From Candidatus Electronema aureum (GTDB lineage: Bacteria; Desulfobacterota; Desulfobulbia; Desulfobulbales; Desulfobulbaceae), in NCBI GenBank assembly GCA_004284765.1, contig NQJD01000038.1, positions 1 to 23,259 on the forward strand: a DNA stretch of 23,259 bases, given 5' to 3'. The translations under genes and the position numbers were made by a program. Below are positions 2,289 through 22,606 of this stretch, in pieces. How positions within the stretch are numbered: the stretch's first letter is position 1; the number at the start of each line of letters is the position of its first letter. A model generated the notes under the pieces. It had not been told where the DNA came from and did not search any database. It saw only the letters and a program-made list of their open reading frames with translations.

Positions 2289-2292
2289 AAAG

Positions 2293-4035: not shown

Positions 4036-4103
4036 ATTTAAAATTTTTGATTTCTTGTATTTTTTCATATAATAGAGAATATTTAAAAATTAAAATAATA
4101 AAA

Positions 4104-4358: not shown

Positions 4359-4360
4359 AA

Positions 4361-4615: not shown

Positions 4616-4625
4616 TTTTTTAAAA

Positions 4626-5981: not shown

Positions 5982-6065
5982 CGGTGTAATTGATCCCCAA
6001 TGAAATCAAGGGGTTTCACGAGCGGAAAAGTATAAATCTTTTTTATCTATATAAAAAAGAAAAAG

Positions 6066-6601: not shown

Positions 6602-6910
6602 TCAGGCTTCTTTCACCAAAAAGTCTTCGATGTTCCCGCCCTTCTCCACCAGTTCTGCAACCCAAACTGGACGGCGACCACGACCAGACCAAGTGTTAGA
6701 GTCCTTCTTGTACTTAATCTTGATTTTTTTCGGTTCCTTCTTGAGGCTCAAAATCTCATCCAGAGACAACCCCGCCTTCTCCGCCAACTCTTGAAACTGC
6801 TTTTTCAGCTCCGCTTTCTTCTCCTTCTGCTTTTGAAGAATTAATTCTTCAATCTCTTTTTGCAAAATAACCAATTCTTCAATTGATTTTTTTTCAAAGT
6901 CTTTGTTCAC
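6602..6910 (-). CDS. hns: H-NS-family nucleoid-associated protein
   Basis: The C-terminal TWSGRGRRPVW matches the H-NS DNA-binding loop motif, and the N-terminus is coiled-coil-like. GTG start at 6910 with AAGGAGA 8 nt upstream. The gene ends TGA (6602-6604), AAA, TAG (6596-6598). Confidence 0.8.
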   Translation of the reverse strand: MNKDFEKKSIEELVILQKEIEELILQKQKEKKAELKKQFQELAEKAGLSLDEILSLKKEPKKIKIKYKKDSNTWSGRGRRPVWVAELVEKGGNIEDFLVKEA

Positions 6911-6912
6911 GG

Positions 6913-7803: not shown

Positions 7804-7857
7804 TTTTTTTATGAAAATAATCTTTATTTTAACTAAAAAATAGGTTATGCAAATGGA

Positions 7858-8070
7858 TTATTTTTTTCTTTTCACCAGTAACTTTTTTCTTCTATCTTCA
7901 CGGGAAATTCAAGAGAAGAAATTTTGCAAAGTTTTGATACTTCGACGACGAGTTAATAATAATGTGATGCAATTGTAATTTTTGTTTTTCTTGTAAATAT
8001 AGAACTCATCAACACAAGAAAATATTCATACTCTCAAACTTCTCTTTATAATCTGCCGTCCGGTTTCCAT
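7858..8070 (-). CDS. Small basic hypothetical protein (70 aa under code 25)
   Basis: ATG at 8070, two in-frame TGA, stop TAA at 7858-7860. It has 71 codons without TAA/TAG in very AT-rich DNA. No family recognised. Confidence 0.35.
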
Positions 8071-8129
8071 ATTGACTAATAAAAGCCAAAAATTGCATAT
8101 CACATGCTTTATTATTTAATTTATAGTTT

Positions 8130-8486
8130 ATGAAAGCAGAAACAGTTATCTTGTGCGATTTGTTACAATGTGGTTTTTTAGATGTAGAATATTTGTCTGA
8201 TATTTGCGAAAGGAATGAAATAGATATTGATACTCAAGAAATAAAGGAAAGTTTTTGAGAATTGCATATGAATGTTTTAATATATGATGCTTTAAGGCAA
8301 ATAGCGGATAAGTTCTTAGACGAAAATTTATATGAAATATGAGAAATTTTAGAGGTGTCAGATATGAAAGAATACATTGCTGAAAATGAGCTTTATGAAA
8401 TCTATACCAATTATTTAGACAGTCATCTATGGTTTAAAGATCAAGAAATTCAAAATTTATTTGAAAATTCAAAGTACCGGAGATAA
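8130..8486 (+). CDS. Strongly acidic hypothetical protein (118 aa under code 25)
   Basis: ATG at 8130, TGA at 8256-8258 and one more, stop TAA at 8484-8486 followed by a terminator hairpin. By my count it has about 28 Asp/Glu against about 10 Lys/Arg. Confidence 0.6.
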
Positions 8487-8499
8487 TCCGGTGCTTTTT
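8474..8499 (+). terminator. Rho-independent terminator
   Basis: Stem ACCGGA/TCCGGT (8476-8481/8487-8492) extended by G-C and T-G pairs, loop GATAA, then TTTTT. Confidence 0.6.
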
Positions 8500-8595
8500 C
8501 TTTTTTGAAAAACTATTAACCAATCTTAGCATATTTTTGGGAGAAGCAAAATATATTTTGCAAATTTCCCTCGGCTTAGTACACTGCTTTACATC

Positions 8596-8700
8596 CTCGG
8601 CTTTGCCGAGCCGATGGGGGGGGGCAAGATTGAAAGTTTCACCTAAACTTTCATCTTGCAAGGCGGGGACACCCCCCTTGACCCCCCGTTTTGCCGTTGG
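8596..8700. promoter_or_regulatory. Candidate oriT
   Basis: It lies immediately upstream of mobC-relaxase. Hairpin CTCGGC-TTT-GCCGAG (8596-8610), a G9 run, a 16-bp imperfect inverted repeat at 8624-8639/8644-8659, and tandem GAC(A)CCCCCC units. The nick site was not identified. Confidence 0.45.
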
Positions 8701-8728
8701 CAATACACAATCTTTTTAAAAAATAACA

Positions 8729-9103
8729 ATGAAAGACAGAAAAGAATACCAAAAGGAATACCTTAAAAAATGGAGAAAAGAAAATAAGGACATTCATATA
8801 TATTTTACACCAGAAGAATACAAATTTTTTGAGGAACTATCAAAAAAGTATGAAGTAAAAACAAGCTCACTTATAAAAACAATGGCAATTTCTCAGGCAA
8901 ACAAAACTCTTTGCTTGCCTAAAGAAATGCAAGAAAAACTAAACGAGTTCGTTTTTCTCATAAGAAACATAGCAAACAATGTGAACCAAATAGCCAGACA
9001 CTCCAACACCATTAAAACCTTAACCGATGAACACGGTTTATTATCCTACCTCAAACAGCTTGAAGAAGCCGTTAAAGAATATGTGAAAAAAGAAAACAAA
9101 TGA
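8729..9103 (+). CDS. mobC: MobC-type relaxosome accessory protein
   Basis: IRNIANNVNQIARHSN matches the MobC signature (NxNQiAr..N). The gene ends TGA (9101-9103), TTA, TAA (9107-9109). There is an ATGA overlap with the relaxase start. Confidence 0.85.
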   Translation: MKDRKEYQKEYLKKWRKENKDIHIYFTPEEYKFFEELSKKYEVKTSSLIKTMAISQANKTLCLPKEMQEKLNEFVFLIRNIANNVNQIARHSNTIKTLTDEHGLLSYLKQLEEAVKEYVKKENK

Positions 9104-10023
9104 TTATAAAATCAATGTCCAGAAAAGAGCCGAGCTTTGCCCAGCTCTCAAATTATATTTTCAAAGGAGCAGACAACAAATACACCTACACAAGAAACCT
9201 TTATGAAAGGGATACTGAAAGCATAACAAGAGAATTTGAAAAAAACTTTAAGCACCTAAAAAGGCAAAAAAACTCAAATGCAATTTACCACGAAATAATA
9301 TCTATCTCAAAAGCAAGCATTGATACAGAAAAACAAAAAGAAAAACTTTTGGAAATAGCTGGTGAATATGCGGAAATAAGGGCGAAAAATTGCCTTGTTT
9401 TCGGCTCCCTTCACGAAGCAGGCAACAACTTTCATTTTCATTTAATGATTAGTTCAAATGGGATCGAACAGAACAGAAATCACTACCTTTCAAAAAAACA
9501 ATTTGACGAAATAAAGAAGGGCTTAGAAAGGTATGTTTTGGAGAAATACCCTGAACTAGACCAAAAACGGGTTATGAACCAAGAAAGGAAAATAGAAGCC
9601 GTATCGCAAAAAGAATTTGAACTCAAAAAAAGAACTGGTGAGATAACAAAAAAAGAATCTATCCAATATCGATTGACTCAAATATTTAATAGATCATCCA
9701 CTAAAGAAATTTTTTTTACTAACCTTGAAAAAGATAAAATTCAAATTTATATCAGAGGAAACACCGTAGGTTTTATAGATTTGTCGGACGACAAGCAGAG
9801 GAAATATAGATTAAAAAAATTAGGATTATCCGAGGAATTTAATAAAATGAGTGAGGTGCTTGCTCGTGAAGTTCCTCACTGTCAGGAACCAGCAAGCAAG
9901 ACCTTTTCAAGGCAGGAAAAACAGGAACAGAAAAAAGAGGAAGCCAGACCGACAAAAGAACAAGAGGCTTTAGATGAACTGAAAAAAATAAGAGATAGTA
10001 AAATTAAAATCAAAAAGATGTGA
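9100..10023 (+). CDS. Relaxase/mobilization nuclease. It is 307 aa under the standard code and would extend to 10263 (387 aa) under code 25.
   Basis: An N-terminal Tyr region (LSNYIFKG) and a histidine triad HEAGNNFHFHLMIS. The TGA at 10021-10023 is in frame with the ORF at 10069-10263, with no intervening TAA/TAG. Confidence 0.85.
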   Translation: MIIKSMSRKEPSFAQLSNYIFKGADNKYTYTRNLYERDTESITREFEKNFKHLKRQKNSNAIYHEIISISKASIDTEKQKEKLLEIAGEYAEIRAKNCLVFGSLHEAGNNFHFHLMISSNGIEQNRNHYLSKKQFDEIKKGLERYVLEKYPELDQKRVMNQERKIEAVSQKEFELKKRTGEITKKESIQYRLTQIFNRSSTKEIFFTNLEKDKIQIYIRGNTVGFIDLSDDKQRKYRLKKLGLSEEFNKMSEVLAREVPHCQEPASKTFSRQEKQEQKKEEARPTKEQEALDELKKIRDSKIKIKKM

Positions 10024-10068
10024 GAATTTGAAAATACAGTAAAAGCCACTAAAAAGGAGGTAGGAAAA

Positions 10069-10263
10069 GTGTTTGCTGGGATTAAAAGAATTTTAGGAGT
10101 AGATAGGTTGCTTGAAGCAGGAAAAAAAAATGAAAAACCTGAATGGGTCAGGGAAGACGGCACTATTGATAAAGAACAACAGGAGGAAGTCTTGAAGGAA
10201 TTAGAAGCCCAACGAGCTTTGAAAATGGGGAAAAATAAATCGGGATACAAAAAAAGCCTTTAG
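10069..10263 (+). CDS. Either a separate 64-aa ORF (GTG start) or the C-terminal extension of the relaxase
   Basis: Same frame as the relaxase. AAGGAGG lies about 10 nt upstream of the GTG at 10069. Stop TAG at 10261-10263 is embedded in an inverted repeat. Confidence 0.4.
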   Translation: MFAGIKRILGVDRLLEAGKKNEKPEWVREDGTIDKEQQEEVLKELEAQRALKMGKNKSGYKKSL

Positions 10264-10325
10264 TGTCTAAAGGCTTAAATATTTAAGAGCTTGAGAGCTT
10301 AAAGCCTTTAGTGCTTAAAAGTCTC
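10254..10325. repeat. Second cluster of the TTTAGTG/CTTAAAGC palindrome family
   Basis: Inverted repeat at 10254-10262/10268-10276, palindrome CTTAAATATTTAAG at 10274-10287, a GAGCTT doublet, and CTTAAAGCCTTTAGTGCTTAAAAG. The units are shared with 775-940. Confidence 0.5.
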
Positions 10326-10340
10326 AACTAACTAAAAAAT

Positions 10341-11807
10341 ATGATAATTTTTAAATTAATCTTTGGCTGGATCATAGATATTCTCCTTACGGGAGGCAAA
10401 TATTTATTATACGGACGGATACTGAAAAATAAGACGGGTTCAAAAATACTTACCCCTAAAGAGATAAAAAGTTTTCTATCTCCAGCACACAAAGGGCTTT
10501 TAATTGATGGAGCCAAAAACCGACTTTCGGTTGCCGAGAGCTTTCAAAATGTTTGTTTTGTGGCAAGGGTAGGAGCAGGAAAAACCACTAAATATATTAT
10601 TCCAAATGTGCTTGATAAAGGCAGACAAAATGTTTCAATGGTGGTGAATGATCCTAAGGGTGAAGTCTATTCTCTAACCGCAGGATATTTACAAGCTAAC
10701 GGGTATAAAATTATAGTTTATAATCCACATAATCTTCTTAATTCTAATTTATTTAATCCTCTTTTAGAGGCAAAAAATCACATAGAACTCGAACAAATAG
10801 CAGAAACTTTAATTTGGATAGGAAACCCAGGAGATAAAGACCCATTTTGGAACAATGGAGCAAGTAGAATAATTTCAGTTTTATTAAAATGCCTTAGTTT
10901 TTCTAAAAATAAACAAAATTTCAATTTGCCTAATCTCTATTATCTTCTTCAAAATTTCGGAGAAATGGGGGAGGGGTTAGATAAGTGGATTTCTCGGAAT
11001 TGCTGGGATCCGACTTGCCCCAACGACAGGTATGTTTTAAACGAATGGAAAGGGGTTTTGACCGGCAACCAAGAAACCGTGCAAAGTTTTGTAGGGGTCT
11101 GTTTAACCTCTCTCAAAGCTCTTTCAAATAGAGACTTACAAGGATTTTTCAGCGATTCAGACTACAAACTTACAAATTTAAGGAAACAAAAAACAGCTAT
11201 ATTTTTCATCACACCACCTGAACACCAGCAATATTATTCATTTGTTACCAGCCTTTTTTTCCGTGCTGTTTTCAACGAATGTATGAGGGATCAACATTTA
11301 AGAGGGAAAAGCCTACCTGTATATATCCTATATGATGAGTTCGGCAATTCATATATCACCGATTTTGTTTCTGTGGCAAATACCATTAGAGGGTATGGTG
11401 TTTCTTTATCTATTGTTTTGCAATCAATTTCACAACTTGCTATGAAATACGGACAAAACACATCTGAAGCAATTCAAGGAGCTTTAAATACTAATATATG
11501 CCTAAGTTCTTCTGATCCTGTAACATCAAAATTCTTTTCTGAACTTTCTGGAAGGGTGAGAGAAAGGCAGGTCAGGGATATAGAAAAAAACATAGAAGAC
11601 TACAGGGAATACAACTTACTCAATACAGATGATGTAAGAACAATGGGACAGGATGAAGCCTTAATAATTTCTAAAAACCGCTATCCTGTAAGATTAAAAG
11701 TAGTTCCGTATTATAATAATAGAATTTTTAAAAAAGCATCTTTATTCCCGAAGCCTAATTTTTCTAATGATGAGAGAAAAATTAATGTTTCATTTGAACA
11801 GTTATAA
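10341..11807 (+). CDS. Type IV coupling protein (TraG/TraD/VirD4 family)
   Basis: Walker A VGAGKTT, Walker B-like VYILYDEFGN, one N-terminal hydrophobic segment. Stop is TAA. About 31 Gly codons by my count, none of them TGA. Confidence 0.9.
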   Translation: MIIFKLIFGWIIDILLTGGKYLLYGRILKNKTGSKILTPKEIKSFLSPAHKGLLIDGAKNRLSVAESFQNVCFVARVGAGKTTKYIIPNVLDKGRQNVSMVVNDPKGEVYSLTAGYLQANGYKIIVYNPHNLLNSNLFNPLLEAKNHIELEQIAETLIWIGNPGDKDPFWNNGASRIISVLLKCLSFSKNKQNFNLPNLYYLLQNFGEMGEGLDKWISRNCWDPTCPNDRYVLNEWKGVLTGNQETVQSFVGVCLTSLKALSNRDLQGFFSDSDYKLTNLRKQKTAIFFITPPEHQQYYSFVTSLFFRAVFNECMRDQHLRGKSLPVYILYDEFGNSYITDFVSVANTIRGYGVSLSIVLQSISQLAMKYGQNTSEAIQGALNTNICLSSSDPVTSKFFSELSGRVRERQVRDIEKNIEDYREYNLLNTDDVRTMGQDEALIISKNRYPVRLKVVPYYNNRIFKKASLFPKPNFSNDERKINVSFEQL

Positions 11808-12464
11808 ATGAATAACTTTGTGTTGTATCTAATAATTTTTTGTTTTGGGTATGTTGCTGGGAAAATTCTATCAAAATTGCATAGATTTTTCTTTCTTATA
11901 GGGTGTTTCCTGTTGATGCCTAAAATATATCAATACAGAAGCCAACATTTATTGATTGTTACTGTTGTTTTTATTCTCGGTGTTGCAAAAGGTTATAAGC
12001 TGTTTCCTAAATTTACAGAAATGCTGGAAGAAATAAAAATATCTATTCATCTTTTCTTTGCTAAGAGGAGAGAAATATCATACAGAACAGCAAAGGAAGA
12101 CTGGAAAGAACAAGAACACATAAATAGCATGAAAGCAGAGGAACTAAGGCTGAAAGAACAGGAGCTATACAAACAAGCCGAGGAAATCAAACGGCAGAAA
12201 CATCGTGCAGACGAGGACTTGAGGAAGGCACGGGAAAAGCAGGCAAAAAATACAAGCTATCCAAACACCTTGCAGGAAGCCTTTGAGGTTCTGGGAACCA
12301 GATCAGGGCTAACAGTCGAGGAATACAAAAGAATTTGGAAACAAGAGGCTTTGAAATATCACCCAGATAGAACAAAAGGGCTTGGTGAAAGATTGCAAAA
12401 ACAAGCGGAAAGTGAAATGAAATCAATAAATAAGGCTTGGGAGATTATAAAAAATAAAGTCTAA
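11808..12464 (+). CDS. Membrane-anchored J-domain (DnaJ-like) protein
   Basis: Two to three N-terminal hydrophobic helices, a charged coiled-coil region, and a C-terminal J-domain with KYHPDR (HPD motif) and flanking helices. The ATG immediately follows the coupling protein TAA. Confidence 0.8.
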   Translation: MNNFVLYLIIFCFGYVAGKILSKLHRFFFLIGCFLLMPKIYQYRSQHLLIVTVVFILGVAKGYKLFPKFTEMLEEIKISIHLFFAKRREISYRTAKEDWKEQEHINSMKAEELRLKEQELYKQAEEIKRQKHRADEDLRKAREKQAKNTSYPNTLQEAFEVLGTRSGLTVEEYKRIWKQEALKYHPDRTKGLGERLQKQAESEMKSINKAWEIIKNKV

Positions 12465-12553
12465 TTTTTTCTTCTTGACAGCACTCTTTCAATTGTGTTA
12501 AAGCCTATTTTTATCTTTTCAATTTTCAGTTTGCCTGTTTTTGGAGAATTCTT

Positions 12554-15500
12554 ATGTCCAAACAGCCCGCCTCCTTTCGGTCTTTGTGGTCTTTCCTTCC
12601 AGTTTCGATTCTGTTTCTTCTTACAATTTATGAGGGTGTTGCTTTAGCTTGTACCCCGAAAATTGTTTGGGTGGCGGATAACAATATCCCCAATGTCATT
12701 GAAGCAGGAACGGCGGTCACTTTCAAATGGGAAGTGGTCAATAAGTCTTCCTGCAATGCCACCGACCTTCGGGTTGCCTTCTATTCTACCAGCCTAGAAA
12801 GCCCTACTGCCGATTTTGGCGGTGATAATAACCCTTCTTTTTCGCTGAAACCTTGGGAAAAAGGCATTATTGAAGCAAAAATGCCTATTGCTCCAAAAGA
12901 GATAGAGAAATACTTTGAATTAAAATTTGATATTGTCAAAGCTGACGGCACCCCGCTTGTTCCGTTGGCATTAGGACGGTTAGGGGCTGAATTTACAATA
13001 ATCCCCCTTACTGAACCTCCACCAACTCAAAGCTGCACGGCAAATCTTGTATGGGAGGAACCGAAATATGATGCAAAAAAGGTTGCTCCCAGTGTGCCGG
13101 TTCTTTTTGTTTGGACGGTTACAAATATTTCTACAGATTGTGATGCTATAAATTATAGTCCTGTATTTTTTTATGCCGAACCTTCCAGTCAAACCGCAAA
13201 TTATAACGGCACAAGCCACCCTCATTTTGATGCAAAGAGAGGGAAAACAGTCCAAATTCAAGCAAATGTTTTGCTTACACCAGCAGAAGAAGGGAAATAT
13301 AAAGCGGTATTTAATATTTACGATCATAACGGCGATGCTTTGCCTGTTTCGGGTGAAAAGGAACCTCTTTATGCCGAATTTGAGGTCAGCAAAAGTATTC
13401 CGCCCCCGAAAGAACCTTGTGACAGTGTACTTGCTCCGGTGGTGCAGAGTGTTGATTTGGTTCAGCTCGGCAACGACGGCAAGGTGCTTGTAACTGCCAA
13501 TGTTACCAACAGTAGCGGAGAATTAACCGTTACACTGGATTTGAATGGTAAAACCTACACCATGAGTAAGCTCAATTCTGGGGCTTATGGGGCAACAGGC
13601 GAAGGCAATAAGGCGGGAAAAAACGATTACACAGTAACAGCAGGAAACGGCTGCAAATTTCACGGGCTTGACTTCGTTGACGGGGTGCTTTCGTCATACA
13701 ATATGGGCACCTGCTGTCAGGATGCCGATATGTCCTGCAAAAACCAGAGAAAATGCGGACGAAGCCAGTTTGCCGCTTCCAAAGGTCATCCAGTCACCAC
13801 CTACACAGGCAACTTTGCTGAAACCCTGACCGATGGAGCCGTTGCAGGGATAGGCGATGCCGACCTTTTTATAACCAGAGCCTACAACTCCGCCGCCGCT
13901 CTTGCCGATGCCGCCTCTGTTTACAGGCATACAGAGGCGGGAAGGGAAAAGGTTGCAGGCCCGCCCCAGTATTTCGGCACAGGCTGGTCTTCCAATTTGG
14001 ATTCCTTCCTTCTGGCTATGGATTATGCCCCTCTCTACGAGGGAGTGCAGATCAGGTTCCCAGACGGCCACACCCAGAACTTTGAGAAAAGCGGCTCCAG
14101 TTACAAGTCTTCCACACCAGACAACTTTGATGAGCTAACGAAGGAAGGCAACAATTTCGTCCTGAAAAGGAAAAGCAGTCTGGAAACTTGGAGCTTCGGC
14201 TCGGACGGCAAGTTGCTCCAAACCAGCGACCAAAACGGCAACAAAGTTGCCTACACTTATGGCGGCGGATGCCTTGAGAAAATCAGCAGCGGCAGCCGAG
14301 CTGTAACCTTCACTTGCGATGCCAAGGGGCATATCACCAAAGCCCAACTCCCAGAAAATATAGTTATTTCTTACGAGTATAACGATGACCTGCTGACCGC
14401 CATGACGGACGGCAGAGGCAATAAGACCCAGTACACCTACGACGAAAACAAGCAGCTAACCAAAATCAGCACCCCGCTTGGAACACCTTCGGTTCAAATG
14501 AGCTATGACGACCGCTACCGTGTTTCCAGTCAGACCGTGGGGGAAAGCGAGCTGTATGCCTTTGCCTATCAGGGCGAGGATGCGGCAGAAAGCACCACCA
14601 TAACCGACAGCTACGGCAATGCCACCGTGCAGAAGCACGATGAAAAAGGTCGTCAGGTTGAAATAACCCACCCCGACGGCACGACCGAAGAATTTAAGCA
14701 CGACGACCACAACAGCCGCACCTACTACAAAGACCCAGCAGGCGGAGAGTACAGCTATACCTATGATGATAAGGGTAATATGCTTGCTCTGGACGGTCCG
14801 CTTGGGCTGCATAAGGAGTGGAGCTACAGCCAAAGCAACCTTGTGACCGCAACCACGGAAAAGGTGGATGATACCAAAAATAGGAAATTCACCTTTGAGT
14901 ACGATGCCAAAGGCAACCTCTCCAAATTCTGCCTGCCGTTGCAAAACTGCGGCACCGTCACCTACACCGCAGCAGGTCTGCCAGAAAAACTGACCGATCT
15001 TCGGGGTAATATCTCGGTCAATGCCTACAATGCCGAAGGCGACCTCGTGAGTGTGACCGACCCCGAAGGGGCGGTTACAAAGTTCAGCCATGACGGGCTT
15101 GGGCGGACGGTCGGCAAAACCAAACCGCTCGGCAATGCCTACCGCTATGCCTACGACCAAAATTCCAACCTGACCGCCGTTGACGGCCCGCTTGGCTTCC
15201 ATATGGGCTACAGCTACGATGCCAACAACAACCTTGCGGAAAGCACCGATCCGAACGGCGGCAAAAAACGGTACACCTACACCGCCTCTGGCAGTATGAG
15301 TTCCGAGCAGAACCAGCTTGGCTTTGTGACCTCGTTTGCTTACGGGCTGATGAACGAGCGGACAGGGATGACCGATGCCGAGGGCAGGCAGTGGAGCTAT
15401 GCCTATGACTCCATGCTTCGGGTTAAAGAGGTGAGCGGCCCGCTCGGACACCGTCAGGGCTTTGTTTACAATGCCCTTGGAATGATCACCGATGCCACCG

Positions 15501-18500
15501 ACCCCGAAGGCAGTGTGAAGCATGTTGAATATGATGCCCTCGGTCGCCCGCTTGCCGTGACGAAAAACTATGTTGCGGGGGCAGGCGACAGCTCGGACAC
15601 CAATATTACAACCCAGTTCTCCTACGATCTTTTAGGCAACAGGCTTTCCGTTACCGACCCTGAAGGCTACCAGTTTTCCGCTGAATATGACCTGCAAAGC
15701 CGTCTCGTAAAACGGCGGGATGCGGAAAATTACGAATGGGAATACAGCTATGACCCAATGGGAAACCTCCTTGCCGAGCTGAACCCCAGAGGCTACAGCA
15801 CCGCCTACACCTATACCCCAGCAAACCGCCTTCAGTCCGTTACCAACCCAGAACAGCACACCAAAACCCTTGTTTGGAATGCCAACGGCAAGCTGGTTTC
15901 AATCAAAGACCCGCTCGGAACAGTCACAGCCTACGGCTATGACTCCCTTGACCGCAAGACTGCCAAAATCATGAACTACAAGCCGTCTTTCGCCCCAGAC
16001 AGCCAGACCAATGTAACCACCAAGTTTGCTTACGATCTAGCAGGGAATCTTCGGTATATCACCAATCCCCTGAACTACAAGGCGGAAATTCGGTACGATG
16101 CCGCTCAACGAAAAACGGAGCAAATCAATTTTGAGGGCGGCAGAACCAAGTTTGCTTACGACAAGGTCGGCAATCTTCTCAAGGTCACGGATGCCAAGGG
16201 TAATTCCACCAGCTATACAGTAGATGAGCTTGACCGCCTTACAGCCGTCACCAATGCCGAGAACGAGACCACAGGCTATGCCTATGACCTCGTAGGCAAC
16301 CGCACCCAGCTTGTGGAGCCAGACGGCACCGTAACCCTGTATGAATTTGACGGGGTGTACCGCCTGAATAAGGTGCATGAGAACTACCGCCCAGACCAAG
16401 GAACGGGCAACGATGTGAATGCCGTCACCGCCTACGGCTATGACAGGCGAGGACTGCTCACCAGCACAGTGAACCCCAACGGGGCGGAGACCAAGTTTGA
16501 GCACAACGGGGTTGAAAAGCTGGTGAAGGAGGTTGATCCGCTCGGCAAGGTCTGGGAATATGCCTATGACGGCAACAGAAACCGCACCAGCCGAAAGGAT
16601 GCCAAAGGCGATCTGACCGAGTACGAGTTCTACCCAGACGACATGCTGGAGCAGATCAGCTATGCCGACGGCAGCAGTGTGTCCTACGAATACGACCCGA
16701 ACAACAACCGCACAGGGATGACCGACAAGCTCGGCACGACCTCGTGGAGCTTTGACCCGCTGAACCGAACCACCCAGCAGAAAGACCCCTTTGAACGGAT
16801 TTTGCAGTACCGCTACGATGCCGATTCCAACAGGATCGGCATGACCTACCCAGACGGCAACAAGGTTGCCTACCAGTACAGCCCGAACAGCTGGCTGAAA
16901 AAAATGACCGACCCTAAAGGGCAGGTCATCACCTACAGCCGTGATCTGGTCGGCAACACCACCAAAATAACCAACCCCAACAAGACCGAAACCACGGTCG
17001 CTTATGACAAGGTGTACCGCACCTTGCAGAGGGTCAACCGCCAGACCACCAACGGCGGCAAGATCAACTCCGCCTACTGGCACAGTTACAACAAGCTGGG
17101 CAACATCACCAAAACTATGAACCAGTACGGCTGGCGGAAGCCGTCCGTCGTGCAGGAAACCTACAGCTACGACGGTTTGCATCGCCTTGCAGGGTTCAGC
17201 CTCTATCCTCTCCAGAACAACGGCGGCAGAGTTACGGAAACTTGGAACTATGACCCCGCAGGCAACCGTCTGAGCTGGAAAACCAACGACGACCTTCAGA
17301 GCAACACCCCCTTTGATGCCTTCAGCAGAACCTACGAATACAACGAAGCCAGCCAGATGCTTGCCGTGGCACACGATGCAGGCAAGAAAAGCAAGAACTT
17401 CGCCTACGAGTACAGCTACGACGAGAACGGCAATAGAATCAACCGACAGCTTGAGGATGCCAACGGCCCGCAATACGGGGCAGATTACAGCTATGACCCC
17501 GAAAACCGCCTTGTGGAAGTGCAGGACTACCAGCTCACAGGCAAAAACGGAAAGAACCGAATAGACCGAGCCGTAACCTCGCTGGAGTATGACGGTGGCG
17601 GTCGTCGGTTGGTTCAACACTATGACCCCAAGAACGGCGGAAATGGAGTTGATAAACGGGACGAGTATGTGTTTGACGGGCTTGACCCAGTTGCCGAGTA
17701 CGACAAGCTGAACGGGCAGCGGACGGACTACTACAGGGGCGAGGGTGGGGACATTGCCTTAATGCACCAGTATAAGGGTGGCACTCAAGGGCAGATGTAC
17801 TGGTATCACTACAACCAAAAGAAAGATGTTGTAGGATTAACGAAACAAAACGGCAATTCACACCACAACTACCGTTATGATGTGTACGGAGCTGTTTTGC
17901 CTGAAAACGGCAATTTCACTGATCCGCACAACCACTACACTTTGACGGGCAAAGAGTTTGATGAGAACACGGGCTTAGTGTGGTTTGGGGCAAGGCATTA
18001 TGAGCCTGAGACTGGGGTGTGGATGGGGCAGGATAATTTTAGAGGAATTTTAGATATACCTATGACATTGCATAGGTATCAATATAATTATAACAATACA
18101 GTTAATTATTATGATCCTGACGGGAAAAATCCATTGATTGTTATTGGTGCTATTATTGCTGGTGTATTTCTAAATGATATAAATATTGCTAAATCTCTTG
18201 ATAAAGGACAAAAGATTGATGGTGAATCTGTTAATTTGATAGAGGAAGTATTAGATGAAATACCAATTTATAAAGATATTCCAGATGGAGCTAAATTTGC
18301 TGCTGAAATTCTTTATACAAAAGGTAGTAATTTAAAAAATCCTAAAAAAACAAAGTCTATATATAAATCTTCAAAAAAGATATGGAAAAAATATGAGCAA
18401 TATTGTATTGACAAGGGAAATGAAATTAAGAAGGAGATTAAGTCTATATGGAACAGTACAAAGAAAAAAACATCTGTAGAGAGTGCATTTAATCATTGGA

Positions 18501-18772
18501 AAAAACATGGTGATGAATTTCCAGAATTTAATAACGCAAAAGAATATGTTGAGGGGGCAAAAAAATTTATTTCTGATCCTCCAAAAGGAACTATTTCAGT
18601 AGATATGAAAAATGGAGGTAAAATGTTTTACAATCAAGAAACTAATACTTTTGCTATTTCAAATAGTGAAGGTGTTCCTGAAACGATGTTTAAACCTGAT
18701 GTTTCTGATCATGGTTTAAACGATAATATGGCATATTGGCTTCAGGAAGTAGCTAAGTGGGGAGTTAAGTGA
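12554..18772 (+). CDS. Rhs/YD-repeat polymorphic toxin with an N-terminal signal peptide (WapA-like architecture)
   Basis: GGAGA ribosome-binding site. Hydrophobic leader ending VALAC. Tandem Ig-like N-terminal domains. Rhs plug-like GHPVTTYTGNF...FITRAYNS. Dozens of YxYDxxGN repeats. Core end GKEFDENTGLVWFGARHYEPETGVWMGQD...YYDPDGKNPL. Stop is TGA at 18770-18772. Confidence 0.95.
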   Translation: MSKQPASFRSLWSFLPVSILFLLTIYEGVALACTPKIVWVADNNIPNVIEAGTAVTFKWEVVNKSSCNATDLRVAFYSTSLESPTADFGGDNNPSFSLKPWEKGIIEAKMPIAPKEIEKYFELKFDIVKADGTPLVPLALGRLGAEFTIIPLTEPPPTQSCTANLVWEEPKYDAKKVAPSVPVLFVWTVTNISTDCDAINYSPVFFYAEPSSQTANYNGTSHPHFDAKRGKTVQIQANVLLTPAEEGKYKAVFNIYDHNGDALPVSGEKEPLYAEFEVSKSIPPPKEPCDSVLAPVVQSVDLVQLGNDGKVLVTANVTNSSGELTVTLDLNGKTYTMSKLNSGAYGATGEGNKAGKNDYTVTAGNGCKFHGLDFVDGVLSSYNMGTCCQDADMSCKNQRKCGRSQFAASKGHPVTTYTGNFAETLTDGAVAGIGDADLFITRAYNSAAALADAASVYRHTEAGREKVAGPPQYFGTGWSSNLDSFLLAMDYAPLYEGVQIRFPDGHTQNFEKSGSSYKSSTPDNFDELTKEGNNFVLKRKSSLETWSFGSDGKLLQTSDQNGNKVAYTYGGGCLEKISSGSRAVTFTCDAKGHITKAQLPENIVISYEYNDDLLTAMTDGRGNKTQYTYDENKQLTKISTPLGTPSVQMSYDDRYRVSSQTVGESELYAFAYQGEDAAESTTITDSYGNATVQKHDEKGRQVEITHPDGTTEEFKHDDHNSRTYYKDPAGGEYSYTYDDKGNMLALDGPLGLHKEWSYSQSNLVTATTEKVDDTKNRKFTFEYDAKGNLSKFCLPLQNCGTVTYTAAGLPEKLTDLRGNISVNAYNAEGDLVSVTDPEGAVTKFSHDGLGRTVGKTKPLGNAYRYAYDQNSNLTAVDGPLGFHMGYSYDANNNLAESTDPNGGKKRYTYTASGSMSSEQNQLGFVTSFAYGLMNERTGMTDAEGRQWSYAYDSMLRVKEVSGPLGHRQGFVYNALGMITDATDPEGSVKHVEYDALGRPLAVTKNYVAGAGDSSDTNITTQFSYDLLGNRLSVTDPEGYQFSAEYDLQSRLVKRRDAENYEWEYSYDPMGNLLAELNPRGYSTAYTYTPANRLQSVTNPEQHTKTLVWNANGKLVSIKDPLGTVTAYGYDSLDRKTAKIMNYKPSFAPDSQTNVTTKFAYDLAGNLRYITNPLNYKAEIRYDAAQRKTEQINFEGGRTKFAYDKVGNLLKVTDAKGNSTSYTVDELDRLTAVTNAENETTGYAYDLVGNRTQLVEPDGTVTLYEFDGVYRLNKVHENYRPDQGTGNDVNAVTAYGYDRRGLLTSTVNPNGAETKFEHNGVEKLVKEVDPLGKVWEYAYDGNRNRTSRKDAKGDLTEYEFYPDDMLEQISYADGSSVSYEYDPNNNRTGMTDKLGTTSWSFDPLNRTTQQKDPFERILQYRYDADSNRIGMTYPDGNKVAYQYSPNSWLKKMTDPKGQVITYSRDLVGNTTKITNPNKTETTVAYDKVYRTLQRVNRQTTNGGKINSAYWHSYNKLGNITKTMNQYGWRKPSVVQETYSYDGLHRLAGFSLYPLQNNGGRVTETWNYDPAGNRLSWKTNDDLQSNTPFDAFSRTYEYNEASQMLAVAHDAGKKSKNFAYEYSYDENGNRINRQLEDANGPQYGADYSYDPENRLVEVQDYQLTGKNGKNRIDRAVTSLEYDGGGRRLVQHYDPKNGGNGVDKRDEYVFDGLDPVAEYDKLNGQRTDYYRGEGGDIALMHQYKGGTQGQMYWYHYNQKKDVVGLTKQNGNSHHNYRYDVYGAVLPENGNFTDPHNHYTLTGKEFDENTGLVWFGARHYEPETGVWMGQDNFRGILDIPMTLHRYQYNYNNTVNYYDPDGKNPLIVIGAIIAGVFLNDINIAKSLDKGQKIDGESVNLIEEVLDEIPIYKDIPDGAKFAAEILYTKGSNLKNPKKTKSIYKSSKKIWKKYEQYCIDKGNEIKKEIKSIWNSTKKKTSVESAFNHWKKHGDEFPEFNNAKEYVEGAKKFISDPPKGTISVDMKNGGKMFYNQETNTFAISNSEGVPETMFKPDVSDHGLNDNMAYWLQEVAKWGVK
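18125..18769 (+). other. Variable C-terminal toxin tip of the Rhs protein (about 215 aa after the DPDG motif)
   Basis: The sequence turns abruptly AT-rich from about 18040. There is a hydrophobic stretch LIVIGAIIAGVFL and a Lys-rich linker. The final domain reads AFNHWKKHGDEFPEF...AKKFI...GGKMFYNQETNTFAISNSEGVPETMFKP, which from memory is reminiscent of colicin D/BECR-type RNase tips. This is unverified. Confidence 0.6.
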
Positions 18773-18829
18773 TTTGACTTTCAATATAATTTGATAGAAT
18801 GGAAATATTTATTTTGTAATAAATATAAT

Positions 18830-19141
18830 ATGAATAACAACAGATTGACTACAGCATGGTACTGTAGGGTTTGTGGCTTGAATCAAAATTATATTCATTG
18901 GGATGTTGATAAACAACTTCCACCTACTTATGATTTTTGTGATTGTTGTAATGCTCAGTTTGGTTATAATGATTCAAATAATATAGCTATATCTATTTAT
19001 AGAAAAAGATGGATTGATTCTGGAGCTGAATGGAGCAATAGAACCAGAAGAATGGAAGAATGGAATCTTAAGGAACAATTAAAGAATATTCCTGATGAAT
19101 ATAGAGATAATTTTGTATTATCTTTGATTTCTGAGAAATAA
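18830..19141 (+). CDS. Putative cognate immunity protein, Cys-rich (zinc-ribbon-like)
   Basis: It lies immediately downstream of the toxin tip and has the same AT-rich composition. C-x2-C (CRVC) and C-x-C-C (CDCC) pairs sit 23 residues apart. The ATG at 18830 is preferred to the TTG at 18791. Stop is TAA. Confidence 0.55.
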   Translation: MNNNRLTTAWYCRVCGLNQNYIHWDVDKQLPPTYDFCDCCNAQFGYNDSNNIAISIYRKRWIDSGAEWSNRTRRMEEWNLKEQLKNIPDEYRDNFVLSLISEK

Positions 19142-19187
19142 TTATTTAACCTTCGTGATAATTACGATTATTCGCCGCCTGCGAATG

Positions 19188-19610
19188 TCAAAAAGGTTTC
19201 CACGGATTGATTATCACCTGATGACTCGGTGCAAAATCATCCTCATTTCGTGTTACAACCACCATTTGATGAGCTGATGCCGTAGCAGCAATATATCCGT
19301 CAATAACAGACATCCGTTGTCCTGCTTCCTCTGCCATAGCTTGCAGGATTCCCCATGCTTCAGCTATAGCACGATCAACAGGGATAATCCGATCACTGTA
19401 ATCGGCTAAAAGCATTTCAAACCAGCCCGATAGCCGAGTTTTCTTCTTTGAGTCAGGCATTCTTGCAATGCCTCGTTTCACCTCGCCAATCGTGAGAGCA
19501 CTTAAAAAAAGATGCTCGGAAGGAACCGATGCGAGCCAGTTCATTACTGCCTTATTTGGAACTGGTCTCACCAATTCAGAAATTATGCAGGTATCGAGCA
19601 GATAATTCAT
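19188..19610 (-). CDS. vapC: VapC PIN-domain toxin
   Basis: MNYLLDTCIISELVRP...TRNEDDF shows the PIN acidic residues in the usual order. ATGA overlap with the upstream antitoxin. Stop is TGA. Confidence 0.9.
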   Translation of the reverse strand: MNYLLDTCIISELVRPVPNKAVMNWLASVPSEHLFLSALTIGEVKRGIARMPDSKKKTRLSGWFEMLLADYSDRIIPVDRAIAEAWGILQAMAEEAGQRMSVIDGYIAATASAHQMVVVTRNEDDFAPSHQVIINPWKPF

Positions 19611-19861
19611 AGATCAAGCTCCCGTGGATATTCCTGTTGCCGTTGAAACGGATCGTCAGCATCAAGTTTGGGACAGCTTAACAGAAATTCTGTAAATGAT
19701 TGTTTATGCGATGTTAATTTTTCATAATCACGGACTGAAAGCAAAACTGCCGTAGCAACACCCCGCCGTAGAACATATTGCGGTCCTTGTGTCAGAGCTT
19801 CATTGACGAACTGACTGAATTTATTCTTTGCATCCTGAAGTTTCCAGTTTGTTTTGATCAT
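19607..19861 (-). CDS. Phd/YefM-family antitoxin paired with VapC
   Basis: MIKTNWKLQDAKNKFSQFVNEALTQGPQYVLRRGVATAVLLSVRDYEKL. The start at 19861 is preferred to the long track ORF. Stop is TGA. Confidence 0.85.
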   Translation of the reverse strand: MIKTNWKLQDAKNKFSQFVNEALTQGPQYVLRRGVATAVLLSVRDYEKLTSHKQSFTEFLLSCPKLDADDPFQRQQEYPRELDL

Positions 19862-19996
19862 GCTTTTTCTCCAGTTAAGGGGGAATTCATCTAGGTAGGC
19901 TAGCTGAAAAAGGTATCGCCTGTCAAGTTCCAAATGGGGAACACGATACAAAGCCACCCCTTGCCTTTTGTGTTGCACCTGTGCTACACTGCTGTT

Positions 19997-20248
19997 ATGA
20001 AGACCGCAACCATACACACACGAATAGAGCCTGAAATTAAAAATCAGGCGGAACAAATCCTAAGTCGGCTTGGACTCACCCACACCGAGGCAATAGGGAT
20101 ATTTTACCGTCAAATATGCCTTGGCAACGGGCTTCCTTTCCCTGTGGAGATACCCAACAAATGCACCGCCGAGACACTGGCAAAAAGCAGTCGTGGCGAG
20201 GAAGTGAAGACTTTTGCCAGCCTTGAAGAGATGTTTGAGACTTGGTAG
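19997..20248 (+). CDS. dinJ: DinJ/RelB-family antitoxin
   Basis: MKTATIHTRIEPEIKNQAEQILSRLGLTHTEAIGIFYRQI is a typical DinJ N-terminus. Stop TAG lies 2 nt before the toxin ATG. Confidence 0.85.
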   Translation: MKTATIHTRIEPEIKNQAEQILSRLGLTHTEAIGIFYRQICLGNGLPFPVEIPNKCTAETLAKSSRGEEVKTFASLEEMFETW

Positions 20249-20250
20249 GC

Positions 20251-20520
20251 ATGAAAAAAGTATCTCAAACCCGCCAGTTTCTAAGGGATGTTAAAAAGGC
20301 TGCAAAACGGGGGAAGGACTTAAACAAACTCAAGCGGATTGTTTCACTCCTTGCAAAAGGCGAACCGCTTGAAGCCAGTTGCAGAGATCACAGTCTAACG
20401 GGGCAATGGAAGCCGTCCCGTGACTGCCATATTGAACCCGATTGGATTCTTATTTATACAGCAGATGAAGAAAATTTGCTTTTAGAGAGAACAGGCACCC
20501 ACAGTGATCTTTTCAGGTGA
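20251..20520 (+). CDS. yafQ: YafQ-family mRNA interferase toxin
   Basis: RDHSLTGQWKPSRDCHIEPDWILIYTADEENLLLERTGTHSDLF matches the YafQ signature. Stop is TGA. Confidence 0.85.
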   Translation: MKKVSQTRQFLRDVKKAAKRGKDLNKLKRIVSLLAKGEPLEASCRDHSLTGQWKPSRDCHIEPDWILIYTADEENLLLERTGTHSDLFR

Positions 20521-20781
20521 GATTTGAAAAAATTATTATTCTGATTTTCTCAAGCAGTCATTCTTTCTTCTCTTCTTTTCAAAGTAGCAAAGCAAGTCGT
20601 CCTGCCGTCACTGGTTCAGATCGTCTCCCCCACCTCCTCCAAGCCGTCCTTTTCAGCCCTCCAACCACTCCGTCAAAGCCTCTTTTGTTTCTATGCCCCG
20701 TAAAAGGCTCATACAAGCCTGTCACAGCCTTTTTTTGTGGTGAGCAGTACCTTTCCATGCCCAGTGGTGAAAATCACTTAG

Positions 20782-20804
20782 AAGCCCCATAGCGGGCTTT
20801 TTTT
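20782..20804 (+). terminator. Rho-independent terminator
   Basis: Stem AAGCCC/GGGCTT with a 6-nt loop, followed by a T7 run. Confidence 0.6.
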
Positions 20805-20810
20805 GAGGGA

Positions 20811-20836
20811 CAAGGAAAACAGGACTGTTTTCCTTG
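20811..20836 (-). other. Near-perfect hairpin downstream of Rep3
   Basis: CAAGGAAAACAG-GA-CTGTTTTCCTTG has 12-nt complementary arms. No clear U-run on the minus strand. Confidence 0.4.
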
Positions 20837-20896
20837 CCTACCGCCCCGCCTGTTCCCGTCCGCCGAACGGCTGACAAAGCACCCCCTGCAAGGTGA

Positions 20897-21841
20897 TCAA
20901 CCTTGCTCTGCCTGTTGTTTCTTCTGCTCCTGTTCCCGCTCGTCCAAAAACTTGATGTATGCCCCTTGAACCATTAAAGCACGACCGTACTCAAGATAAA
21001 ATTTATAAATAAATTCATCATGTACTTTTGCATGTTCTAAAAATTCATTAAATATTTTCCTATCTAATTCCGCTGTTTCAACCTCCTCATAAGATGATTG
21101 ATTTGTTGTTTCTGGTTTAGTCTTAACAATTGATTTATCTGTATTGTTGTCTAACTCAATAATTATAAATTTTATAACCGCAATTTTCCTACCTTCCCTT
21201 TCTGTTTCAAGTTCAAAAGAAATATCAGATTTATATTTCCCTTTCTCGTTTTTCTCATCAAACTCTTTCTTTGCCTGATTTAAAATCCATTTCTTGAAAT
21301 CTTTATATTCTTTATACTGATTTTCCTTTAAACCAAGAATTTCCCTTAATTCATCAACTCTAAATTTTCTCCAACCAATATTTTTATACTGGCAAAGAAG
21401 CTGATAAATTCGTACAGAATAGATACTTTGAAATTGTGTAAGTCGGTTAAGATTTATAATTGTAAAATGAGACTTTAATTGTAATAAATATGGTTTCATA
21501 AAAGGGTCAAACCTAAAATAGACTATCTTGTTTTTATAGTCGTGATCACAAAAAGAAACCCAATGTGTAATTTTAAGTCTTTTTTCTTCTTTTATATAAA
21601 TAATCCTTTGCATTAAACGAACTGTAATTTTTTTCATTTGATGATGGATATTTTCAATATCCATGTTCATAAGATATGACAATTCTTTAAAAGATATTTC
21701 GTATGTATGAAAATCTTTATCGTCTTTTTGTATCTTTGATACCATAGCTAAAATAAGCCGTTGCTCACTTGTTGTTAAAGTGTATTTTGATTCAATTAAC
21801 TTGTTTGATTGAACAACAAACTTAGGAGCATTTGCCGTCAT
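20897..21841 (-). CDS. Rep_3/RepB-family replication initiator Rep3 (314 aa, standard code)
   Basis: VVQSNKLIESKYTLTTSEQRLILAMVSKI and FRFDPFMKPYLLQLKSHFTIINLNRLTQFQSIYSVRIYQLL are Rep_3 patterns. Stop is TGA at 20897-20899, and no TAA/TAG follows in at least the next ~40 in-frame codons I translated. Confidence 0.9.
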   Translation of the reverse strand: MTANAPKFVVQSNKLIESKYTLTTSEQRLILAMVSKIQKDDKDFHTYEISFKELSYLMNMDIENIHHQMKKITVRLMQRIIYIKEEKRLKITHWVSFCDHDYKNKIVYFRFDPFMKPYLLQLKSHFTIINLNRLTQFQSIYSVRIYQLLCQYKNIGWRKFRVDELREILGLKENQYKEYKDFKKWILNQAKKEFDEKNEKGKYKSDISFELETEREGRKIAVIKFIIIELDNNTDKSIVKTKPETTNQSSYEEVETAELDRKIFNEFLEHAKVHDEFIYKFYLEYGRALMVQGAYIKFLDEREQEQKKQQAEQG

Positions 21842-21933
21842 TGTAACACCTTTAGCTTTTTTTGTATGAAAAATACTGAAACGGCTTTTATCTTACATCG
21901 GTGGAGAATGCTTGGCAAGTCTCCTCTCTATTT

Positions 21934-22061
21934 TCATGTTTTTTTCTCCACCTTTTTAAAAAGTGGAGATAGTTTAGCTATTCTCCACCTATGCTGTTTC
22001 ATGTTTTTTTCTCCACCGTATCCATGTTTTTTTCTCCACCTTTCATGTTTTTTTCTCCACC
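21934..22061. repeat. Iteron array for Rep3
   Basis: (T/C)CATGTTTTTTTCTCCACC at 21934, 21999, 22022 and 22043. Half-sites TTCTCCACC at 21981 and inverted GGTGGAGAA near 21900 and 21963. Confidence 0.85.
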
Positions 22062-22117
22062 TTTAGCTTTTTTCCCTCTGTTATTTCAGATAGTTACAGT
22101 ATCGTAAATCTTTTAAA

Positions 22118-22160
22118 AAAGAAAAACACACACACAAAGTGTGTGTGTGTGTTTTTCTTT
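22118..22160. terminator. Long A-tract/(CA)n - (GT)n/T-tract hairpin, bidirectional terminator-like
   Basis: AAAGAAAA(AC)5 pairs with (GT)5TTTTCTTT. There are A-runs 5' and T-runs 3' of the stem. Confidence 0.6.
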
Positions 22161-22563
22161 CACTTTAAAAGGGGAAAAATGGTTGCTTCGCAACTTGAAC
22201 AGGAGCCGTGCTTGAGGCACGGCAGGGGGGCTATCGCCCCCCGAAAAGTGTTGCGACTGCTCGTCGCAAACGGAAACAGAACTTTCTTTGAAAGAGGGAT
22301 GAAAATCTTGCCGTCCGTCTCCTCCTCAAGCCTCCCGCCCTGTACATGCTCTAAAAGGAGGCATACAAACCCGCTACAGCCTCTTTCAAAACAAAGAGGT
22401 ACTCTGGAATGCCTCAGCTTCAAAAAACAAAACATGACCCAGTGGAGAGCTTTTTTGGAGGTATGTACAAAAACAGCCCTGATCCCGTCTCCTGCGGTTC
22501 GTATCAGCCAAACTCCCGCCAGAGGAAGCGGACAGCCTCACTCTCTGGTAAAAATGAGAAGAA

Positions 22564-22606
22564 GCCCTTTGTTTCCTCGCTTTTGAAAGCGAAAGAAAAC
22601 AAGGCT
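22564..22606 (-). terminator. Extended imperfect hairpin downstream of the minus-strand small gene
   Basis: Inner stem TCGCTTT/AAAGCGA, outer pairing CCTTTGTTT/AAAACAAGG. On the minus strand it is followed by TTCTTCTCATTTTT. Confidence 0.45.

Follow-up and report, generated by a model that had tools for sequence, protein, structure and literature searches.

The window analyzed here, a 23,259-nt stretch of DNA (contig NQJD01000038.1 of assembly GCA_004284765.1, Candidatus Electronema aureum), encodes a large Rhs/YD-repeat polymorphic toxin at 12554-18772 (+). The C-terminal tip of this toxin and the gene downstream form one cassette, apparently swapped in by recombination within the conserved end of the Rhs core. 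We think it quite probable that the window is a multi-replicon, mobilizable plasmid of the Desulfotalea type that carries this swapped-tip toxin as cargo, followed by toxin-antitoxin (TA) modules. The most likely host is Ca. Electronema aureum or a close relative in the Desulfobulbales.

The Rhs open reading frame (ORF) encodes 2072 amino acids (aa) and ends with TGA at 18770-18772. Its product is identical to NCBI entry TAA74141.1, from 'Candidatus Electronema aureum'. The protein matches RHS_repeat from Pfam (PF05593, E = 1e-121, 14 stretches) and TIGR01643 (E = 1e-83). The NCBIfam model for the Rhs-associated core, TIGR03696, matches aa 1775-1857 with 51.3 bits, above its curated cutoff of 32.5. 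A preliminary description of this DNA, made without database searches, had proposed a 2072-aa polymorphic toxin with YD repeats and an Rhs core, and these matches bear it out. The parts of the protein up to the cleavage site, and just past it, are (coordinates are those of the window):

12554-12649 (+): predicted Sec signal peptide, aa 1-32, with cleavage between MSKQPASFRSLWSFLPVSILFLLTIYEGVALA and C
12650-13420 (+): two tandem Ig-like repeats, aa 33-160 and aa 161-290, each opened by a Cys
13784-14083 (+): DUF6531, aa 411-510 (Pfam, 34 bits, cutoff 24.1)
14084-17875 (+): YD/RHS-repeat shell, 53.5% GC
17876-18124 (+): Rhs-associated core, aa 1775-1857, which holds GQD1827 and D1854-P-D-G (TIGR03696 and family alignment)
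18131-18172 (+): hydrophobic helix PLIVIGAIIAGVFL, from a hydropathy scan, just past the predicted cleavage site and followed by a Lys-rich linker

The signal peptide, also proposed earlier, is called from sequence features only: a hydropathy scan found a basic n-region, a hydrophobic core of 15-17 residues (Kyte-Doolittle values up to 2.1), and an A-L-A/C site. Homologs have equivalent N-termini, some of them with lipoboxes. The two Ig-like repeats share 29% identity (E = 1e-11) and have a weak match to the NBR1-type Ig domain (PF16158, E = 2e-4, below its cutoff). Both aspartates of the two-aspartate autoprotease motif (DPxGL...DPxG) are present, in GQD1827-NFRG and in D1854-PDG; the first motif lacks the proline. 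As the preliminary description had stated, there is no sign of a type VI secretion system (T6SS): Pfam found no PAAR, VgrG, or T6SS domains in the Rhs protein or in the other products of the window that were scanned. Pfam also found no cell-wall-binding domain in the Rhs protein. The protein is a member of the polymorphic toxins, with those defining features that could be tested, and is neither a T6SS Rhs protein nor a relative of WapA.

The composition of the DNA changes abruptly near the end of the Rhs gene. The shell (13400-18035) has 53.5% GC, followed by 28.3% at 18036-19167 and 45.2% at 19168-20520; the backbone (1-12553) has 31.8%. In a two-segment likelihood scan, the maximum-likelihood change-point was at nt 18033, with a log-likelihood ratio (LLR) of 84.3. 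Among 2000 shuffles, the maximum LLR had a mean of 2.75 and a top value of 9.7, and equal-sized windows within the shell gave an LLR of 4.7 or less. GC at third codon positions (GC3) drops from 0.62-0.80 to 0.17-0.27 across the junction, so the shift is not merely due to amino-acid usage. The break is inside the codon for D1827 (18032-18034) of GQD/NFRG, 26 codons upstream of DPDG (18113-18124). The AT-rich block ends at another change-point, 19173, which is 32 nt past the stop of the downstream ORF at 19141. The last 245 codons of the Rhs gene and the next gene thus form one 1.13-kb block. The first 1827 codons, from the signal peptide through most of the core, are typical for the family. The preliminary description had placed the switch near 18040, about 25 codons upstream of the cleavage motif, with AT-rich DNA continuing through the tip and the downstream gene, and all of this agrees with the measurements. 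It had also called the shell more GC-rich than anything else in the window. The shell is the largest GC-rich block but not the sole one, as short patches at 6401-6800, 20601-21000, and 22201-22600 have 49-52% GC.

A sister plasmid from another sample shows a different tip in the same place. Contig SRR28273976_31865 from Logan (12.6 kb; L102) is a Rep3 plasmid with the same order of an Rhs gene followed by PIN and Phd genes. With blastn, the window aligns to L102 at 12352-18035 (76.6% identity) and again at 19168-19959 (93.7% identity), with nothing alignable between. The intervening DNA is 1132 nt in the window and a different 935 nt, with ~30% GC, in L102. Because the flanks match and the middle does not, the two plasmids hold alternative tips between the same flanks. 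Each limit of homology lies within six bases of the corresponding GC change-point, which gives these boundaries:

18032-18036 (+): left recombination junction and GC change-point, codon D1827 plus the next base; homology to L102 ends at 18035
18036-19167 (+): AT-rich tip-plus-immunity cassette, 28.3% GC, 1132 nt, bounded by the loss and regain of homology to L102 and by the change-points; its right end is in the spacer that precedes the PIN gene

The Rhs gene of L102 (in the region 3359-10761 of that contig) is 77% identical and is broken into three ORFs of 197, 1214, and 726 aa, and the PIN/Phd flank is 94% identical. No separate immunity ORF is visible in L102.

Homologs from cable bacteria diverge at the same point. 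Among 13 of these, the C-terminal core is 80-89% identical over aa 1691-1854 (two extend further at ~61%), and homology to the window's protein ends at aa 1854-1857 in 10. All 13 are invariant up to ...ETGVWMGQD (...FGA/SRHYEPETGVWMGQD) and then diverge: the next ~27 residues are loosely similar, and beyond the cleavage motif the sequences are unrelated. A run of ~35 nt before the junction, TATGAGCCNGAGACTGGGGTNTGGATGGGGCAGGAT, is near-identical in the window and in two Electrothrix chromosomes. The comparison with L102 and with these 13 homologs places the left boundary at 18035/18036, exactly at the GC break, and supports the earlier proposal that the tip and immunity gene were replaced within the core end. 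Unrelated tips past the core end, which that proposal had suggested looking for in other Rhs alleles, are present in L102 and in all 13 homologs. Orphan tips, also suggested, were not seen: downstream of the Rhs gene we found neither dissociated tips nor pieces of a core. As no displaced old tip is present there, a double crossover explains the replacement better than the insertion of a circle would. In enterobacterial rhs elements, tips are decoupled from their cores, are laterally acquired, and are exchanged by homologous recombination in a hyperconserved core end (PMC2935791).

The preliminary description had remarked that the cassette resembles the plasmid backbone in composition. The resemblance is there, but the idea of a shared reason for it is weakened. 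In two chromosomal homologs (L009 and L010), GC content falls from 55% to 39-42% at the same codon and recovers past their own tip and immunity genes, and Rhs tips that were acquired laterally and are shifted toward AT have long been recognized (PMC2935791). An AT-shifted tip is a habit of this Rhs family, as in classical rhs elements, and the cassette in the window is more AT-rich than most.

The cassette encodes a toxin domain and a small protein:

18440-18769 (+): C-terminal toxin domain, aa 1963-2072, of the CdiA-CT (8EY4) type with a colicin D-like fold; H1981 and H1985 near-invariant
18830-19141 (+): candidate immunity gene, 103 aa with a CxxC...CxCC pattern, which starts 58 nt past the Rhs stop

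The toxin domain is similar to PDB 8EY4_A (phmmer E = 1e-23; E = 3e-43 with a family profile; ~44-50% identity). 8EY4 is the complex of a contact-dependent growth inhibition (CDI) toxin with its immunity protein from E. coli O32:H37, and chain A is the toxin. An AlphaFold2 (AF2) model of the domain has a pLDDT (predicted local distance difference test) score of 92.5, and Foldseek matches the model to 8EY4 with E = 2e-10, a TM (template modeling) score of 0.92, and a root-mean-square deviation of 0.7 Å. The next Foldseek matches are to the tRNase domain of colicin D (1V74, 5ZNM, and 1TFO/1TFK; probability 1.0, TMq 0.52-0.56). Because of the colicin D-like fold of the model, we infer that the tip is an RNase, probably one that acts on tRNA. 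Among 37 members of the family, at least 90% retain H1981 and H1985. A histidine of the toxin domain may correspond to the catalytic His611 of colicin D.

Neither the tip nor the downstream ORF matched Pfam or NCBIfam, and PADLOC gave an insignificant match only; the search for the tip domain that had been proposed earlier succeeded via phmmer and the family profile. The domain is found in 1213 representative clusters (50% identity, E of 1e-3 or less). Among the best-scoring carriers, which range from ~110 to 2340 aa, it is nearly always C-terminal, and it is also found on SpvB/TcdB/FG-GAP/RHS proteins and on CdiA. One 1530-aa protein without a Pfam match (P0006) has five toxin-type domains in tandem, and two others (P0043 and P0066) have three copies each, which is odd for a toxin domain. 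We found no literature on 8EY4 or on CdiA from E. coli O32:H37.

The 103-aa product has a single homolog (P0003, 58% identity) among 5.8 billion sequences. The gene for P0003 starts one base past the stop of a 189-aa toxin with a signal peptide; this is one locus on two contigs (L006/L007). The C-terminal domain of the L006 toxin shares 65% identity with the toxin domain of the window. Its final residue is at the matching position (...WLQELAKWGAK), and the stop codon is TAA. At the DNA level, 18443-19117 of the window is 66% identical to L006. This co-occurrence and co-divergence with the toxin suggest that the Cys-rich protein is a candidate immunity protein. Comparison with PDB sequences gave chance matches only. 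The stand-alone toxin and immunity gene in L006 are the closest relative of the cassette. Downstream of them are a second 189-aa toxin-like gene, with an N-terminal hydrophobic stretch and no family match, and a DUF2247 gene; together these genes (307-2330) form a small toxin and immunity island in DNA of 26-37% GC.

On this basis the toxin might work as follows. Sec would export the Rhs protein, and the YD shell would enclose its C-terminal tip. The two-aspartate autoprotease, to which the shell side would contribute D1827, its last conserved residue, and the cassette D1854 of DPDG, would free the tip inside the shell. The tip would then be delivered to a neighboring cell, with the hydrophobic helix and the linker perhaps aiding entry, and the ~100-aa domain with a colicin D fold would cleave RNA, most likely tRNA. 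The 103-aa Cys-rich protein would protect the producer. Export, encapsulation, self-cleavage, delivery, RNA cleavage, and protection are all drawn from established Rhs biology.

The shell family seems to be confined to cable bacteria. The best 20 homologs of the Rhs protein are 59-78% identical over 58-89% of its length, and the next match is at 34%. Those of the best 20 that are named are all from cable bacteria of the Desulfobulbaceae (Electrothrix, Electronema, or 'Desulfobulbus sp. US4'). We found no paper that joins 'cable bacteria' and 'Rhs'. We examined four chromosomal loci with homologs: L009 and L010, plus L012 and L013, which are in chromosome-like contexts. No PAAR, VgrG, EagR, or T6SS genes were seen near these four homologs. 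In two of the four, a secretin operon is directly upstream. The homolog of Electrothrix laxa (L009, 1-7783) directly follows a T2SS-like (type II secretion system) set of L/M/C/D/E genes, and the one on a JGI contig (L012, 1-6020) directly follows a PilMNOP-secretin (PilQ) operon plus SecB. SecA is close to the homolog in a third locus. The secretin operons are a possible export route, which we regard as a lead and not as evidence. A tblastn comparison (E of 1e-3 or less) of the window's TA modules with the chromosomal Rhs loci and the TA genes that flank them detected no similarity, so there is no evidence that the Rhs gene and TA genes were captured together from those chromosomes.

The rest of the window has the features of a mobilizable plasmid:

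8729-12464 (+): mobilization block, with genes for MobC, a MOBQ-type relaxase, a small ORF, a type IV coupling protein (T4CP), and a J-domain protein (Pfam)
8729-9103 (+): MobC (Pfam)
9100-10023 (+): relaxase, MOBQ-type, 307 aa (Pfam)
10341-11807 (+): T4CP (Pfam; NCBI TAA74139.1, 'Candidatus Electronema aureum')
11808-12464 (+): J-domain gene, between the transfer genes and the Rhs gene
19188-19861 (-): PIN toxin and Phd antitoxin (Pfam), the conserved right flank of the cassette

No mating-pore genes were found in the window; the relaxase and T4CP without mating-pore genes imply that the plasmid is mobilizable. This agrees with the preliminary description, which had put the Rhs gene directly downstream of the transfer genes, except that the J-domain gene intervenes. 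The window has a second type II TA module, RelB/YafQ. It also has three Rep3-type initiator genes, each beside its own iterons (2421-3933, 4626-5983, and 20897-22064); the iterons are three copies of 43 nt at 3807-3933, four of 22 nt at 5761-5983, and four of 24 nt at 21932-22064. The plasmid is a multi-replicon or a cointegrate. H-NS-like genes are described on AT-rich plasmids, and a protein with the H-NS C-terminal domain (PF00816, E = 3e-13) is encoded at 6602-6910 (-), on a patch of 45-49% GC in the AT-rich backbone. Perfect or near-perfect palindromes are at 2293-2330 (19+19 nt, no spacer) and 782-828 (20+20 nt), and another at 22118-22160 has arms of 19+19 nt with a (CA)n/(TG)n core between them.

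The backbone resembles the small plasmid of Desulfotalea psychrophila LSv54 (NC_006140.1). Amino-acid identity is 49% for MobC, 52% for the relaxase, 38% for T4CP, 38% for the primase, and 32% for the J-domain protein. The gene order is the same (Rep3, toprim/CHC2 primase, MobC, relaxase, T4CP, J-domain), and the primase gene has in-frame TGA in both. NC_006140.1 is 14.7 kb with 28.6% GC, one replicon, and no Rhs gene; in contrast, the window has three Rep3 replicons, the H-NS-like gene, two TA modules, and the Rhs cargo. Sulfitobacter carries a GC-rich version (51.5%) of the backbone. A megablast search of the whole window against PLSDB gave no match. The large plasmid of Desulfotalea shows that IncP-like helper plasmids do exist in the Desulfobulbales. 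This conjugative plasmid (NC_006139.1) also has a TpsB/filamentous-hemagglutinin (CDI-like) locus at 53294-71898 (L098, 3294-21898), which is a further plasmid-borne contact-toxin system in the Desulfobulbales.

The left part of the window (1-8700) is gene-poor under translation table 11, and reading TGA as sense restores three ORFs:

2421-3683 (-): RepA, a Rep3 initiator of 420 aa, with 9 in-frame TGA and 3 GGN codons
4026-4358 (+): small ORF with 3 in-frame TGA
6913-7803 (-): toprim/CHC2 primase of 296 aa with 4 in-frame TGA

All four TGA codons of the primase gene align with Gly in a homolog from Bacteroides uniformis, including the one in the Toprim 'E-G' motif, and 5 of the ~7 alignable TGA codons in repA match Gly in homologs. 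These positions imply that both genes were shaped by a code in which UGA encodes Gly. Code 4 (UGA as Trp) was considered and rejected, as the TGA codons align with Gly and not Trp. The primase gene on the small Desulfotalea psychrophila plasmid (L011, 6844-7737, -) has five in-frame TGA codons and no other internal stop, and two of the five are in the same columns as the window's. The other 13 genes that we checked in the window have no in-frame TGA; these include the T4CP gene (31 GGN) and the Rhs gene (177 GGN). TGA ends 10 of the window's 16 genes, and where this was checked, the stop is where homologs end: the relaxase has 307 aa, versus 306 aa (with a TAA stop) in Desulfotalea, and PIN and Phd end with TGA at the same residue in L102. 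Ten of 16 is unusually many for AT-rich DNA, and in the RepB, H-NS, and MobC genes a TAA or TAG follows two codons on.

Under code 4 or 25, the Rhs ORF would run through the TGA at 18770 and a 19-codon spacer into the immunity ORF, to give 2195 aa at 12554-19141. This continuity of frame is probably a coincidence. In L006, a TAA codon closes the toxin gene at the position where the window has this TGA, and the immunity gene there lies in a different frame, so the TGA at 18770 is the natural end. We conclude from these gene comparisons that the Rhs gene is read in the standard code.

Searches for further traces of the altered code gave little. Rfam and tRNA scans found no RNA genes in the window, in either Desulfotalea plasmid, or in related loci, and no suppressor tRNA was seen. 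A scan of GTDB for the primase found ~40%-identical homologs, mostly from mobile elements of Bacteroidota, none with TGA, but the GGN in the main search pattern could not match TGA variants. The pattern 'FE-TGA-FIDF' gave chance matches only in JGI metagenomes and IMG/VR, and we found no literature that ties cable bacteria to code-25 bacteria.

Several points weigh against a Desulfotalea-type plasmid in a cable bacterium with a swapped-tip toxin. The three ORFs of the backbone need UGA as an amino acid, which a standard-code host does not explain. The assignment of the host rests on the binning of a metagenome-assembled genome (MAG), and the plasmid could belong to another member of the enrichment. 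In addition, four contigs (47 genes) of the short-read MAG did not align to the closed chromosome and were called contamination (Sereika et al., PMC10030654); the window's contig may be among them. On the side of the cassette, no dissociated tip lies downstream, so that displacement by circle insertion is not directly seen and a double crossover is needed. The AF2 model of the candidate immunity protein is poor (pLDDT 45.8), and an assignment to Cys_rich_CPCC was rejected: in L008 a CPCC protein comes after a homologous toxin, and hhalign of the candidate with that protein gave a probability of 4%.

The altered codons could instead mean that the plasmid belongs to Patescibacteria in which UGA encodes Gly (for example, an epibiont of cable bacteria from Gracilibacteria or Absconditabacteria), with an Rhs gene captured from the cable-bacterial host and expressed as a 2195-aa fusion of toxin and immunity protein. 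The preliminary description had raised an epibiotic or predatory host with code 25, and one part of that idea survives, in that repA and the primase gene look shaped by UGA as Gly. Such a host would also account for the continuous frame at 12554-19141, and the nearest plasmid relatives of RepA are from Firmicutes. However, the backbone is shared by the plasmid of Desulfotalea psychrophila, a standard-code organism in pure culture, and the primase gene of that plasmid contains in-frame TGA, so genes of this kind are known from a standard-code host. The many TGA stops that agree with the ends of homologs, the T4CP and Rhs genes without internal TGA, the TAA stop and different frame in L006, the lack of a tRNA gene in the window, and the deposit of this DNA under Electronema all argue against a code-25 host, and fusion to its own immunity protein would disarm the toxin. 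We consider such a host very unlikely. A related speculation is that this plasmid family may shuttle between standard-code Desulfobulbales (Desulfotalea and cable bacteria) and UGA=Gly Patescibacteria. In that case, code-neutral genes would sit beside repA, the primase gene, and perhaps the ORF at 4026-4358, translatable only where UGA encodes Gly, and the cargo would be a contact toxin of cable bacteria. The TGA-containing genes that are intact over 296-420 codons, the TGAs at Gly positions, and the Desulfotalea primase gene leave room for this shuttle, which we nevertheless think improbable.

It is unlikely that the Rhs-immunity pair is mainly an addiction or exclusion module of the plasmid instead of an interspecies weapon, with a Sec-exported, periplasmic toxin that would penalize cells of the filament that lose the immunity gene. 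The periplasm of cable bacteria is shared between the cells of a filament. Conductive fibers run in the periplasm along the filament (PMC11976967). The Rhs gene is on a plasmid beside two type II TA modules, its block with PIN/Phd recurs on a second Rep3 plasmid (L102), and Rhs loci in Salmonella are reported as TA-like modules (PMC7043789). On the other hand, most members of the family that we examined are chromosomal or in chromosome-like contexts, and the elaborate Ig-like domains and shell better fit delivery to another cell. An addiction role is compatible with our explanation of a plasmid that carries a swapped-tip contact toxin, not exclusive of it. As for the composition break, an assembly chimera or a by-product of amino-acid usage is almost certainly not the cause. 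The source is a short-read metagenome, and the tip is rich in Lys (16%), Asn (8%), and Ile (10%), which favor AT-rich codons. Yet the identical 2072-aa protein was assembled independently from three runs (Logan assemblies SRR14559658, SRR14559659, and SRR14559660), so the junction is not a one-off chimera. Also, the ORF runs through the junction unbroken; GC3, on which amino-acid usage has little influence, goes from 0.6-0.8 to about 0.2; and the two change-points are exactly where homology to L102 is lost and regained.

Composition breaks and tip exchange at the ends of rhs genes are long known and are textbook features. What is new here is an Rhs family that is specific to cable bacteria and apparently unreported, its presence on a plasmid of the Desulfotalea type, and a base-level map of the cassette at both ends. 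This is a clean natural cassette swap, with both boundaries mapped by two independent methods (composition and a sister plasmid), and the variable boundary is between the aspartates of the autoprotease, not after the cleavage motif. A plasmid-borne copy bears on competition or kin discrimination between filaments of cable bacteria. Cable bacteria are now without genetic tools, and the window offers a candidate plasmid backbone for them. Although Pfam and NCBIfam have no model for it, the toxin domain occurs widely, in 1213 clusters at 50% identity. If they are functional, the UGA=Gly genes of this plasmid family, whose hosts use the standard code, would matter more than anything else here.

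Among known systems, the tip shares sequence and fold with 8EY4 and shares its fold with the colicin D tRNase. It differs from CdiA and colicin D in that its carrier is an Rhs shell and in that no PDB chain matches the neighboring immunity candidate in sequence. The Rhs protein is like WapA from Bacillus subtilis in having a signal peptide, a YD/Rhs shell, a C-terminal toxin of the RNase type, an adjacent immunity gene, and no T6SS. However, WapA is a wall-associated protein of a monoderm, while the Rhs protein has no detected wall-binding domain and its close relatives are all from diderm cable bacteria. The likeness to WapA that the preliminary description had drawn therefore holds as an analogy in the mode of working, not as family membership. 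Enterobacterial Rhs proteins (Jackson et al. 2009, PMC2935791) share the hyperconserved core end, the laterally acquired variable tips with their downstream genes, and the change of composition at the boundary. Unlike them, the Rhs protein studied here has a signal peptide and an Ig-like N-terminus, without PAAR, VgrG, T6SS, or an array of dissociated tips. Its variable boundary is ~27 residues before DPxG, between the two aspartates, and it is plasmid-borne and found in the Desulfobulbales.

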